Below, one piece after another: positions 57,982-63,259 of a stretch of DNA of 64,000 bases. The notes beneath the pieces are model-generated. The model was not told the DNA's origin and did not search any database. It saw only the letters and a list, made by a program, of their open reading frames with translations. The stretch is from Podospora anserina (Eukaryota), in NCBI GenBank assembly GCA_017654855.1, contig CM030332.1, positions 7,750,001-7,814,000 on the forward strand, read 5' to 3'. The position numbers and the translations under genes are program-made. The stretch's first letter is position 1. Each line of letters begins with the position of its first letter.

Positions 57982-59175
57982 GGATGACGACCGGGTCGAA
58001 AACGATGACGGCTGTACGGTCATAACTCTACGATGTGACCGACCCAGGCGCATATACCGACCTCCTCTCCTTACACCTCTGCACCACCAACAATCGATAC
58101 CCCACCTTTCTTTCAGCGACGTATTATTACGGAGAACATATGCTTTGGCGAGCGATTGGCGTATATAGGAGACACGGGGAACGACGGGAGACTGTGGGGG
58201 CGGGGGCGTGTTAATCCTCTTTTCGTACATTGGAAAGACTGGATGGGGCGGCAACAGCATGGGATGGTTCAAGAAGGCAAGCATGGCATCCGGCGTTTAG
58301 GTTGGGCTTCTGTTGGGTGGTTTTTATTTTTGGGTATATATGGGATGATGCGAGTAGGTTTGGCAACGGGATGATTACCCCTCTCACAGTTACTCTTTGT
58401 TGCTTGTAATGATACAAGGGAGGGATTAAATGTACGATACCTACGTCAGGGCGCATGATGCATGAAGGGAAAAAACGGGGGGAGGATGTATGCATTCAGC
58501 AGGGGAGGAAAGCTGGGGTTCTCAAATGGGTGGAAAAGAAAAGGAACGGAAAATTCACGGAAAGGACAAAAAGGTAAAACAGGATCCCTGCTCTTGAAAA
58601 AAGACAAATAAATCCAATATAAACATGGCAAATCAAGCCAAATTCACACTGAGCCGGAGTTCACGAGATAGTAAACTGTGATAGGGAAACTGGGAGGTGG
58701 AAAAACGGGATATCTCGAATTCAATGAAACCAAATAAAAGTCCAAAAGCTAAACCCTCAAGACACTCTCTCCTTGGCTTCCATTCTCCTCCGCTGGCAGT
58801 GAATCGACATGAAAGGAAACAAAACAAAACAAAACAAAACAAAACAGTACAACTGATGCAACAAACAACATTACTCGCCTCCTTTTTGGAAAAAATGACC
58901 AACCAAGCCCGCACACCATCATAACCCCGTCATGCTTTCTAATCATCCAACTTATACGACTCTGGAAACATCCCTTTAGGTGGTTTCTTTTGCAGCTTTT
59001 TCGGTCTCGTCTGCACAGAGAGTGATGGCTGCGGTGGCGCCGACACCGACCTGCTGATGTCCGTTGCCGCCCTCTCCCTCCCGCCAGACCACAACCGCGA
59101 AATAGCCCTCCCCGTCGTCGAAAAGCTGCTGCCGTTCGTAGAAACCGAAGCCGTCGTCTGATCCAATGTCGTTGC

Positions 59176-59177
<2 letters not shown>

Positions 59178-59220
<43 letters not shown>
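59178..59220. repeat. Hexanucleotide repeat (GTGGTC)n, read as (ACGACC)n = poly-Thr on the minus strand
   Basis: About 7 perfect units just downstream of SNX3. Confidence 0.9.
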
Positions 59221-59277
59221 ATTGGTAGTGGCAGTAGAACCCGAGTCAGTCCTCACCAGCTGCCCCGTGACCTCTCG

Positions 59278-59768
59278 TCACCAGGCGTTTCTATCCCAGT
59301 TTGGATCTGTCTCCCATGTTCAGCAACCTCCGTTTTCATGATAGACCCAAGAAAGAGAGCCAACCTACCCTGCACGAACCCGGCCAGAACCTTGCTCCCC
59401 GTCTGCAACAGCGGATGCCCAACCACAATCTTGAGAAACTTCTCCAGCCCGGCCCTCCTGCCCTCAATCACATCATCGCTGAACCTGTTCGTAAACACCT
59501 TCCCCGGCAGCGGCGGGATCGTAACCCTCGCGCTCTCCCTCTCGAGGATATCCCGAAAGTACTCAAAGTCGCTGTATCTCCTCCGGACCGTCGACTGCCT
59601 CAGCTTAAAAGCAGGGATGTTGGTCCGGCAGACGATCTCGTAGTCGGTGTACATGTGCCTACCGATACCGTGGGTGCGGGGGTTGCGGACTTCGATCTCG
59701 AGAAAGTTCTCGGGGGGACCGTAGATCTCGTCAAAGGACTGGGTGCGGGTGTCGGGGAGGGATTGCAT
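59278..59768 (-). CDS. SNX3: Sorting nexin-3, PX domain (exons 59768-59369, 59306-59278)
   Basis: [34 protein letters not shown]...[52 protein letters not shown]...[12 protein letters not shown]. Confidence 0.96.
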
Positions 59769-60683
59769 GATGGGTCGGTGGAGGCGGGCGGCGGCGGCGA
59801 GGGCTTCGGATTGGGAGCCTGTAGGGGAGGTGGGGGATTTGGGAGGCTGGCTTTCGGTGTTGCCAGCCTCGGTGGGAGAGTTGGAAGCCAGGTTGGGCGA
59901 GTCAGTGGGAAAGCTCCCTTGTTGAAGGGGAGCTTGTGGCTAGCTGTGAGGGGGTTGGTGTGGTTTGGGTGAGGGGTTGCAGATGCGCGCGAAAACAAGG
60001 CCGAAGCTGCGCGCGGTGGTTAGATGCTTCTGGGAGAGCAAGTCAGAGCTGTGCGGTGTTGACCGGTGGTGGTGTAAATGTTGGCGCAAACCGGATCAGA
60101 AAAGTTGGTGGTGGAGGAGGGTTGAGGTCGAAGCGGTGATGTGATGCAAGTGAGCGAGAGCTCGCTCCTCATGCTCGTAAAGTGGTCAGCCAAGCCAAGC
60201 CAAGCTCGCAAGGAACGGGCCATGGAAGGTGGGGTAATTCCCGCCGCTCGACGATCTCGGGTCCGGGATCTGGGCCCATGTTTGCCATGTCACACCCTAT
60301 CTACCAGTGAATATCTCACTATACAGATATTAGTGACTTGGTTATTGTCTGCAGTGGCAGTTCAAAGCACGCGCTTGCTCTCAACATGTCAACAAGAAAC
60401 ACGTCACAGACCACAAAACGCCAAGTACGGAATGGGGCCATGCGGAACGGCTTTTGTGATTGCCAATAGTTGTCCCCGAAAGCGCCCAGAACTCCTTCCC
60501 ATAAGCGCAGGTATAAATCCTCATGAATACAATACACACTCCTATGCGTTTCCCTGATGGCTGTGTAAAAGTACTGTTCAAGCCAGCCTACTCTTTTTGG
60601 CATCCGAAACTCGACCAACCAGTTCGACAAATCTTTCTCATCCAAAGCCCCTCCGCCCTCAACCTCTTGTGCCCAAGCCATAC

Positions 60684-62354
60684 CTATTTGTCCGCAAATT
60701 TCTGGTGAATAGCCCGAATCTGCTCGTCAAGGTTGAAGTTCTGCATCTGGTTCACATGGGCGGTTTCTGGGTTGCCGTCGAACGAGTGCAGTGCAATCTT
60801 CTTTCTCCGTGCCTGCTCCTCCTCCGACAGTGCCTGGCCAGTGGCATTGTCAAACAGGTCACTGCGTTGACTGGCCAAGCGCTTGAGATTATTGGCCACG
60901 TCCACCGTGCTAAGGTTGGTGGTGGCATACCGGGCCTCTGCCTTGGCCTTTTGCTCTTTCCACCGTGGATCGAGGAGTTCAACTACCAGATGTGTTAGTA
61001 CCTGCTGAAAAACAAAGATAACATGGATCAGATGCTCACTTCTCATATGATCATCCATCTCGTTGAGCGGAATCTGCTGCTTGCAGTTGGGGCATATGGC
61101 CGTCTGGGCGCCGATTTTGTTTGCTGCCCTCTGAGCCGCCCGTGGAACGTAATTCTCCTTGATCTTCATGGGCGCGGCGCCACCGCGGGCTTCGGTCTGT
61201 GCCTGTTGCATGCGTAGCCTTTCTTGCTCTCTTTCTCGAATTCTCTGTACCTCATGTTCCTCCTCTGCAGACCTGGATCCTCCAACTGGTTCAGATGAGC
61301 CATACGATGGAGGTGGCGGGGTATTGGCAGCCGGATAGGCAGGCGTTTGGTGAGTTGGTTGCGGCACTGCGGCCGGGGCCTGCACGCCATATACCTGCGG
61401 AGGATAAGCGTTGTAGCTGGTGTCCTCGAATGGGAACGCTTCCTCGATGCGGAGACTGGAGCTGATCGACATCTTGTTCTTCTCTTCCAAAGAAGCATAC
61501 TGGAGATCGTTGAGAGTCGTCGGGGCCGGAAGGGATGCCTGGTCATCGGCTTCGGTAAAAGTGATGGTCTCAACCACGACAAAGTCGTTCCAGTCGATCC
61601 GCGCAAGCTCCTCCTTCTTTTGTTCCTCCTGTTCCTCCTTCTTCGCCTTCTCAGCCTCGGCCCATTTGGCATATTCCGCCCTCTGCTTGGCGCGCGCGAG
61701 CACATGGTATTTGTCGGTAGCACTGCGGCGAAGTTCTTCAACACGGGCTTGGTGCAGCTTGGTGCCTTCGCCATTGACGCCGCTCTCGCGTAGGAGAATT
61801 GAATACTGATCGATGAGGCTCTGGAAGAAGTTGTGGAAAGTGTGGTTGGGAGCCAGGAACTGGAACTGAGGGTTGCCATGCTCACGCTGCGCAAGCTGTG
61901 TCATAAAAGGGCGCCCGTTCTTTGCGACGAACAAGGCAGTTAGTCGCACAATCTCCAAATCTTTCTGGCTCATTCGAGGCATACGGGCTGAGAACTGGAA
62001 GTCGGGAGGCTTCTGAGGCCCCTTTGGCTCTTCCTTCGCTGGCGCAGCATTCTCTCCGACGCGACCAGCCGCCACCGCGGTACCACGGCCGGCCTTGATC
62101 TCCTCTTTCCTCCATTCGTAGTAGGCGTTGTACGGGTCGTCATGCTTCATCAAAAAGCTAAACTTTGGGTTTTTGCCGTGGTTCTCGCGGATGCGCTGTT
62201 CGAGGCCAAGGCCACCGCGCATGACATAGCCAGCCGTCTTCTCGATCGCTTCGCGGATTTCACCCGGTGGTGGGATGATAACTCCTGGCGGCGGCTTGAG
62301 ATTCTCAAGCGCCGCGGCCGCCGATGCAGCCGAGTCTCCGTTTGCAACGGCCAT
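60684..62354 (-). CDS. PRP21: Splicing factor 3A subunit 1 / Prp21 (intron 60983-61039)
   Basis: Two SURP domains (IEKTAGYVMRGG...NPKFSFL; IVRLTALFVAKNG...NPQFQFL), IDWNDFVVVETITF, and CPNCKQQIP...HMRIELLDPRWKEQK. Confidence 0.95.
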   Translation of the reverse strand: MAVANGDSAASAAAALENLKPPPGVIIPPPGEIREAIEKTAGYVMRGGLGLEQRIRENHGKNPKFSFLMKHDDPYNAYYEWRKEEIKAGRGTAVAAGRVGENAAPAKEEPKGPQKPPDFQFSARMPRMSQKDLEIVRLTALFVAKNGRPFMTQLAQREHGNPQFQFLAPNHTFHNFFQSLIDQYSILLRESGVNGEGTKLHQARVEELRRSATDKYHVLARAKQRAEYAKWAEAEKAKKEEQEEQKKEELARIDWNDFVVVETITFTEADDQASLPAPTTLNDLQYASLEEKNKMSISSSLRIEEAFPFEDTSYNAYPPQVYGVQAPAAVPQPTHQTPAYPAANTPPPPSYGSSEPVGGSRSAEEEHEVQRIREREQERLRMQQAQTEARGGAAPMKIKENYVPRAAQRAANKIGAQTAICPNCKQQIPLNEMDDHMRSEHLIHVIFVFQQVLTHLVVELLDPRWKEQKAKAEARYATTNLSTVDVANNLKRLASQRSDLFDNATGQALSEEEQARRKKIALHSFDGNPETAHVNQMQNFNLDEQIRAIHQKFADK

Positions 62355-63259
62355 TTTGATGCAGGTATTTGCAGAATCGATGCGGTGGTTGGAATGATGA
62401 AGAGTAAGAGTTCGCCTATCGAAATTCCTGAACACTGCCAATTGCTATCGGCGCGCGGCAGAGCGCGGGTGGGTTGCGATCAAATGGTCCGTGCGCACAT
62501 TTGGTACTGTACTTTTGACCATCTCAGGGATCATCACATCTTCACATGCAACCTTGACTTTTGATTCACTTCCTGCTTGAGACTTGAACATCTTGCCAGA
62601 TAAGAGAAGGTCAATCCGTCAGGTTCCCCTCACATATCGATGCCAATTTTCTCCATTGCCTGCCCTGACATGTTCCCTTTCAATACGAATACACACGCAG
62701 GGAGAGTGGCTGTGACGCGTCGAAAAATAACTAGTTGGTCCCCAGGGAACGGTGCTAGGCTCTTGCGAGGTTACTTGTGGCCCGTGTTCCGTGCTGTCTG
62801 GGGAATGTCAGCCAATAACAACACGCTACGCCCGTTTTTAACCCAACAGGGGGTTGAGGCCACTTAAGCTACATTGAAATAATTATGGGATGCTTGTCGG
62901 CACGCAGCTTCATCACTGGCGACTGCAACCCCCTTTCCATCTCTTCAGCCTTTTCCGAGGTCAAGTCAGCTACTGAAGACTGACCAAGTCTTTTCTTCTT
63001 CTTCTTCTCGTCCAACTTTTTCTTGCTCTGGACGTGGCCGAGTGCTCTTCACTCGACACTTTTTTTTTCTTGTTCGGAATTCAGCATCCAATGACAGCCT
63101 TGTAATGAAACCTTGACCTTCTCGACTCTCGTTAACTCCCAGTTCCCGGATTGACCAACAACGATCCTGGCGGCTGAATTATCACACCGTCAACAACACC
63201 CCCCGACCCCGATAAGAACTACGATTTCTAGCTAGACATCGTCCTCTCCACCATCGACA

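Follow-up and report, generated by a model that had tools for sequence, protein, structure and literature searches.

The SNX3/Grd19 gene of Podospora anserina raises the question of whether its product is confined to the protein that begins at the annotated AUG, or whether an in-frame CUG codon further upstream also serves as a start and gives rise to a second, N-terminally extended form. The gene lies on the minus strand of a 64,000-nucleotide stretch of contig CM030332.1 (positions 7,750,001 to 7,814,000; assembly GCA_017654855.1, 35.96 Mb in 9 contigs), referred to as the window, 3′ of a PRP21/SF3a-type gene ending at 60684. Comparison with orthologous sequences suggests that SNX3 very probably carries a Sordariomycete-wide conserved N-terminal extension, which in this species would be started by the CUG at 59891, and that leaky scanning would yield both a 183-aa and a 142-aa form.

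The product from the annotated AUG to the TGA is 142 aa long, with a PX domain as its only folded domain and SNX3 as its nearest relative. Searches against solved chains matched the PX core to 7blq_G (E 6.9e-72), yeast Grd19 (1ocs_A, E 7.6e-41), and SNX3 (5f0j_C, E 8.1e-38), and the aligned part of the core is 100% identical to Podospora pseudopauciseta SNX3 (P0050). By analogy with its close ortholog (7BLQ), this SNX3 would be expected to bind PI3P and to sort cargo in a retromer-dependent manner. The neighboring PRP21/SF3a-type gene (60684-62444, minus strand) lies immediately 5′ of SNX3 and takes its name from fused records; several records (P0200, P0203, P0222) merge it with SNX3 or lend SNX3 its name, which indicates a conserved PRP21/SF3a-SNX3 gene order. 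The coordinates of the features are collected in Table 1.

Table 1. Features of the SNX3 locus in window coordinates, with the evidence for each.
Feature	Position	Strand	Evidence
CTG, putative near-cognate start of the long isoform	59889..59891	-	Sequence; aligns with ortholog ACG/ATG
Initiation context CCCAAC-CTG-GCT (C-4, A-3, A-2, G+4, C+5)	59886..59897	-	Sequence; ortholog contexts
41-codon N-terminal extension, Ser/Pro/Thr/Ala-rich, without predicted structure	59769..59891	-	Sequence; structure model
KSPTSP segment, SP-rich	59823..59840	-	1-3 SP dipeptides in 20/20 ortholog extensions
Conserved core-proximal part of the extension (10 residues)	59769..59798	-	Ortholog comparison
In-frame TAG closing the frame upstream	59940..59942	-	Sequence
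5′ leader, AUG-free, under contigs of probable RNA runs	59892..60121	-	Run contigs; sequence
9-bp hairpin, +22..+49 from the CTG, -18.2 kcal/mol	59843..59870	-	Folding
Annotated AUG, start of the 142-aa short isoform	59766..59768	-	Podospora and Neurospora records begin here
SNX3 PX-domain coding exon	59369..59768	-	Solved-structure matches; Pfam PF00787 on homologs
62-nt GT-AG intron	59307..59368	-	Joint 59306/59369 in 4/4 runs
Final coding exon (DPNWDRNAW), closed by the TGA at 59280-59278	59278..59306	-	Sequence
112-codon open frame directly behind the TGA, candidate readthrough extension	58939..59277	-	Sequence, ortholog motif
Conserved PKKLQKKPP motif in the downstream frame	59004-58978	-	Sequence

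The CTG and the SNX3 ATG stand 123 nt (41 codons) apart in the same frame, which is open for 57 codons upstream of the ATG. No ATG occurs in any frame between 60171 and 59769, and the nearest one upstream (60172) is out of frame and outside the cover of the run contigs. Within the open stretch the CTG is the only in-frame near-cognate besides an ATC directly 5′ of the AUG. The original prediction had described this codon, its A-3 and G+4 context, the ATG-free frame back to a TAG near 59940, and a peptide of 46 letters with an M-A-S start, and the sequence and its translation agree with it exactly. It had also set this context against that of the annotated AUG; the latter (CCCATC-ATG-C) was quoted correctly, but it is not weak, having A at -3 and C at -4.

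Ortholog DNA was collected from 80 metagenome loci, giving 81 with the window; after removal of 11 loci with fewer than 200 nt upstream, 8 in which no 5′ anchor was found, and exact duplicates, 48 remained. These comprise 22 Sordariomycete-type loci (the window among them, recognized by a motif in the core that does not depend on the extension), 21 others, and 5 unclassified. In each of the 22 Sordariomycete-type loci the frame stays open for 30 codons or more upstream, and in 10 of them an in-frame ATG lies 30-57 codons upstream. An in-frame CTG, GTG, or ACG with A at -3 is present in the open stretch of 11 of the 12 ATG-less Sordariomycete-type loci versus 1 of 23 outgroup loci, the latter being the 26 non-Sordariomycete-type loci less 3 with an upstream in-frame ATG. 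The start position is thus an AUG or a near-cognate codon in 21 of the 22 loci (10 ATG, 11 near-cognate), counts that overstate independence as the loci are related (near pairs L047/L055 and L063/L064); the only miss, L037, is a distant outlier with 111 identical residues against about 130 in the others. A MAFFT column shared by the window's CTG holds the ACG of 7 loci and the ATG of 2, with 2 others misplaced, in an alignment partly guided by the cutting of segments around the candidate starts.

The ten distinct non-AUG starts were tabulated beside ten ATG starts, with L037 and the near-duplicate L055 omitted. In DNA-readable loci they are 8 ACG, 1 GTG, and 1 CTG, preceded by C at -4 in 10/10 and by A at -3 in 10/10 (the latter being the selection criterion), with A at -2 in 9/10 and C at +5 in 9/10. 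Serine, a feature not used in picking, is the third residue behind nine of the ten non-AUG and nine of the ten ATG starts. The context is therefore near-optimal and conserved among orthologs, and the exchange of codons within one context can be seen directly in GCCAAA-ATG-GCGTCC of L054 and GCCAAA-ACG-GCGTCC of L047. A noisy weight matrix gave a less clear picture. It was trained on the crudely called ATG starts of long ORFs (43 and 62; the window and 200 kb of G000), and with 62 starts it chose the in-frame codon in 8/12 non-AUG loci versus 3/18 outgroup loci and did not rank the window's CTG first; it was abandoned as a start predictor, and the simpler A-3 rule was applied afterwards.

Stops or frameshifts between the start position and the AUG in orthologs had been named as evidence against an extension; in the 20 loci with an assigned start, no in-frame stop separates it from the core. 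The non-AUG loci retain an AUG at core codon 0 or +3 in all ten cases, and none of the ten has an out-of-frame AUG within the extension. The downstream AUG has been lost from 5 of the 10 AUG loci, all Chaetomiaceae-like. The original prediction of a CUG start holds for the conserved position, where orthologs have ATG or a near-cognate codon, but less so for the codon itself: judged from the readable DNA, the start is a class-wide feature that is not CUG-specific, and ACG is the commonest non-AUG codon. CTG was seen at the DNA level in the window only, and elsewhere the CTG type appears as Leu in protein models, where the codon is unseen. In L007, L054, and Xylariales-type proteins such as P0026, P0043, and P0064, the segment RGMA(S/G)M(A/S)RP stands in place of RLHRPI; its two extra in-frame AUGs make up to four or five AUG starts possible.

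Protein records, which do not reveal codons, offer a second view of the same region. Among the best 120 matches, 98 have a Sordariomycete-type core; 40 of these 98 begin with a Met 15-80 residues upstream, mostly as MAS, MSS, or MAT, and some of these models are probably mis-modelled starts. A further 13/98 have xAK-T and 8/98 xAK-L at the start position within over-extended models, while 28/98 are annotated short and 9/98 are of other kinds. The extension is also present in models marked partial from Neurospora hispaniola, Sordaria brevicollis, Copromyces, Cladorrhinum, and Rhypophila; the records of Podospora anserina and Neurospora crassa begin at the downstream AUG. Outside the Sordariomycetes, ATG-started SP-rich extensions without RLHRPI occur in P0096, P0100, P0103, P0105, and P0108 (Rutstroemia, Clarireedia, Monilinia, and Botrytis) and at L041 and L069, and the tail is perhaps older or convergent, since some non-Sordariomycete orthologs carry such an extension.

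Codon-level comparison revealed protein-coding constraint in the core-proximal part of the extension, the remainder of which aligns poorly. Over the last 10 codons, identity to the consensus at codon positions 1, 2, and 3 is 0.74, 0.86, and 0.64 in non-AUG loci and 0.88, 0.90, and 0.72 in AUG loci, versus 0.51, 0.50, and 0.49 in the outgroup. Synonymous and non-synonymous single-base codon differences over the last 7 codons number 92:49 in 12 non-AUG loci and 79:29 in 10 AUG loci, against 83:252 in 21 outgroup loci. The extension ends in a conserved RLHRPI motif, the codon changes of which are mostly synonymous; across 43 aligned proteins, the conservation of residues R39 and P40 reaches 90% or more. 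In the ortholog comparison that the original prediction had proposed, the peptide with its SP-rich stretch and RLHRPI is kept. Because the five AUG loci without a downstream AUG should make the long form only, it is very likely that this form functions as SNX3.

The same data bear on the possibility that the extension is a relic, in which an ancestral AUG decayed to CTG and the region is now an untranslated leader that merely resembles the old peptide. Such a history would fit the use of ATG in 10 of the 22 ortholog loci and the good context of the downstream AUG, which would suffice on its own, and translation from the CUG is deduced rather than observed. However, decay is unlikely to have hit ACG, GTG, and CTG repeatedly, and under tighter context constraints than the ATG starts obey (A-2 in 9/10, C-4 in 10/10), nor would it keep RLHRPI with predominantly synonymous changes in the non-AUG loci, and in the window both KSPTSP and the ten-residue core-proximal segment are intact. 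This reading is accordingly considered unlikely, and a translated extension is preferred.

Transcript cover was taken from 4 of 24 listed sequencing runs, belonging to 4 studies. None is recorded as RNA, and they were treated as such because they are spliced and leave the sequence between genes without cover. Unbroken spliced contigs run from 59369 to 59936 in one run and to 59954 in three, so that the CTG is covered in 4/4 runs with 45-63 nt of contig upstream of it. Separate pieces of lower depth reach 60109-60121, and 60164-60407 is without cover. The original prediction would be contradicted by a transcript start downstream of 59891; the contigs, which cannot map transcript starts and drop rare splice forms, reach past this point, and both candidate 5′ regions (near 59954 and at 60109-60121) lie 5′ of the CTG. 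The contigs of all four runs are free of letter changes at the CTG and its context, and the single difference within the extension is a synonymous Pro change at 59823. At 59950-59954 a short C run interrupts the contigs of three runs, leaving loose ends of poly-G, and all four runs lose depth 5′ of this point; the break may be a main start site or an artefact.

An extension translated from an AUG in an upstream exon through an unseen splice, or from a codon other than the CTG, is another explanation to consider. A branch-like CTAAC followed by CAG near 60020-60006 could provide an acceptor, and rare splice forms would have been dropped from the contigs. Against this, none of the contigs of the four runs has a splice joint upstream of 59369, cover ends by 60121, the nearest ATG is out of frame and beyond that cover, and the in-frame TAG at 59940 would block an acceptor near 60006; the CTG, moreover, is the sole suitable in-frame near-cognate. 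The upstream exon was rejected for want of a joint in the four runs, and this alternative as a whole is very improbable, leaving a CUG start within the mRNA as the preferred reading.

The single sequence by itself gives modest evidence for the CTG start. Of 5000 dinucleotide-shuffled leaders, 2.9% contained an in-frame CTG with A-3 and G+4 no fewer than 25 codons upstream, 5.4% any CTG, GTG, or ACG so placed, and 1.0% the full CAMM-codon-GC pattern. The open frame, put forward originally as support, is real but weak on its own, for 67% of the shuffles have an open stretch of 41 codons or more, and frame +1 is open as well. Likewise, the C-ending codon bias exists (27/41 extension codons, equal to 27/41 core codons) but is weak evidence, with 21/41 triplets 5′ of the CTG also ending in C. 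Open-frame length and C-ending codons were both dropped as arguments, being near chance in a C-rich leader. A genome background, restricted to ORFs whose upstream frame is open for no more than 60 codons, gave 0/17 A-3 starts with such an upstream codon, a sample too small to weigh. Chance, in which the C-rich leader happened to hold an open frame and a fortuitous CTG and the conservation stemmed from the AUG context or an RNA element, can draw on these shuffle rates and on CCC ATC before the AUG being a good start context too, but is extremely unlikely and largely refuted by the ortholog start-codon, context, and coding-constraint data. In the last 10 codons of the non-AUG loci the third codon position is more variable than the first two, the outgroup being flat at about 0.50; CCC ATC is retained in loci that have CTC, CTG, or TTG instead of the AUG; and other species encode this peptide in ordinary sequence started by ATG.

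The hairpin behind the CTG may help CUG recognition. In the START study (Tidu et al. 2024, PMC11165317), the available text gives an optimum of +23 to +26 and a useful range of +17 to +32 for such hairpins, with a threshold of about -15 kcal/mol in reticulocyte lysate, values that are mammalian and in vitro. The SNX3 hairpin begins at +22, and its region has a z of -2.1 over 141 nt (dinucleotide shuffles) and of -4.7 from +13 to +75 (base shuffles). It is not significantly conserved: only 2 of 10 non-AUG loci are more stable there than their shuffles (z below -3), and a hairpin kept across orthologs finds no support.

According to the model that we favor, scanning ribosomes would enter the AUG-free leader and a fraction would initiate at CUG 59891, with its near-optimal context and the hairpin behind it, to produce the 183-aa SNX3 with an M-A-S start, while those leaking past would initiate at the AUG 41 codons on and produce the 142-aa form. 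Across the Sordariomycetes the extension would be common and its start codon exchanged among AUG, ACG, GUG, and CUG; non-AUG lineages, which retain the downstream AUG, would make both forms, and some AUG lineages without it the long form only. As to its most likely function, the disordered SP-rich tail ending in RLHRPI would extend the N-terminal arm beside the retromer-engaging region, and start-codon stringency together with phosphorylation could tune retromer or cargo binding.

The structure model, itself mediocre (mean pLDDT 65.4, pTM 0.50) and used solely for the lack of predicted structure, has pLDDT <50 over segments 1-19 and 21-40 and no helix or strand in the extension. The short form has 9 residues before the shared alignment point versus 22 in yeast Grd19, from which it follows that the extension would restore and exceed a Grd19-like arm. 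Deletion of the human SNX12 N-terminus abolished cargo binding and tubulation, according to the available text of a preprint (PMC13174498). From these two observations RLHRPI can be viewed as a lengthener of the retromer-facing arm; the chances are about even that it does so and that the SP repeats perhaps act as kinase sites, those in KSPTSP being possible sites of proline-directed kinases. The available text of a Fusarium graminearum study (PMC8689521) locates Snx3 on early endosomes.

The original prediction further supposed that, with readthrough of the stop codon, one small gene could make up to four isoforms. Comparative data support this idea at both gene ends, and translation from the CUG and through the UGA would follow from them. 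In a survey of 56 loci (10 lacking the last exon and duplicates having been left out), a PRKL(R/Q)K-type motif occurs in the open frame 0 behind the stop in 37 of 43 distinct TGA loci (of the remainder, 2 are truncated and 4 lack it) versus none of 13 TAA/TAG loci, and in other frames it never occurs among the 56. A conserved in-frame peptide thus lies behind a conserved UGA, as in programmed readthrough. The motif is also present in outgroup loci without the N-terminal extension, including Leotiomycete-like ones. The canonical readthrough signal is UGA-CUA(G); it is absent here, the window having TGA CGA, and the base after the TGA in motif-bearing loci is C in 20 and A in 17.

UGA readthrough would be the simplest reading of the downstream motif as judged from these sequences. 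A-to-I stop-loss editing may operate instead, and the available text of PMC6794485 documents it in other Sordaria genes. No alternative joint or edited base at the stop was seen in the contigs of the four runs, from which rare forms are dropped. The gene models P0050, P0044, and P0072 invoke alternative splicing to take in the downstream motif; the contigs have the 59306/59369 joint only. The downstream frame also contains an ACGACC repeat encoding a Thr run (59176-59220, minus strand), and two runs have a 6-nt frame-keeping deletion at 59176. The balance tips slightly toward an SNX3 recoded at both ends under purifying selection, with an AUG/ACG/GUG/CUG start toggle acting as a long:short dial and an older UGA bypass, without the canonical signal, adding a basic PRKL(R/Q)K tail. 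If so, one 142-codon retromer-adaptor gene would give four proteins (142, 183, 255, and 296 aa), and endosomal sorting would be tied to how stringently translation starts and how faithfully it ends.

Few conserved non-AUG extensions have been documented in filamentous fungi. SNX3 would provide a natural allelic series in which one peptide is started by AUG, ACG, GUG, and CUG across lineages, and each non-AUG case examined has retained the backup AUG. With such a series it could be asked directly whether selection favors weak start codons as a means of setting an isoform ratio. By implication, numerous SNX3 records (Podospora, Neurospora crassa, several Hypocreales) would be N-terminally incomplete or have invented starts, with consequences for the tagging and complementation of this core retromer adaptor and for constructs used in structural work. 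With the parallel stop-codon signal, the gene could serve as a compact model of recoding at both ends. CUG is reportedly the best near-cognate start in Neurospora, and Wei et al. (2013, JBC) are said to list conserved near-cognate extensions in that genus.

No report of a non-AUG or readthrough form of a fungal SNX3 was found in the literature within reach; most subscription papers lay outside it, and Wei et al. 2013 and the supplements, also those of PMC5487733 and PMC7049704, may bear on priority. The terms "snx" and "sorting nexin" have no occurrence in the main text of PMC5487733, nor have "snx" and "nexin" in that of PMC6794485; the available text of PMC8689521 and PMC7990337 makes no mention of SNX3 isoforms, and the motifs are missing from 10 supplementary files of the Sordaria proteogenomics paper (one file being unreadable).

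Two other known systems stand close to SNX3. The leaky-scanning isoforms of Cryptococcus and Neurospora (Wallace et al. 2020, PMC7049704) likewise comprise two N-termini from one mRNA, and the available text notes near-cognate ACG, AUU, and CUG starts; their extensions are mostly mitochondrial targeting peptides, whereas the first 30 residues of SNX3, acidic and Ser/Pro-rich, do not by eye resemble one. The other is Neurospora crassa cpc-1 (NCC6-8; Ivanov et al. 2017, PMC5487733), also from the Pezizomycotina, which in the available text has a conserved in-frame extension upstream of the main AUG, initiated at conserved CUG, AUU, and ACG codons in near-optimal context, and taken in by some automatic annotations with its start left unresolved. 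SNX3 shares with it an in-frame near-cognate that precedes the main AUG without an intervening stop, placed within the mRNA and without a splice-supplied upstream AUG in the contigs of probable RNA, which do not map starts. The two differ in that cpc-1 has two regulatory uORFs, several near-cognate starts with largely fixed codons, and a frame of at least 160 codons (PMC5487733, available text), whereas SNX3 has no uORF, an extension of 30-57 codons, and one start varying among AUG, ACG, GUG, and CUG. The class of conserved non-AUG extension is thus already known from cpc-1, and SNX3 would be a new case of it.
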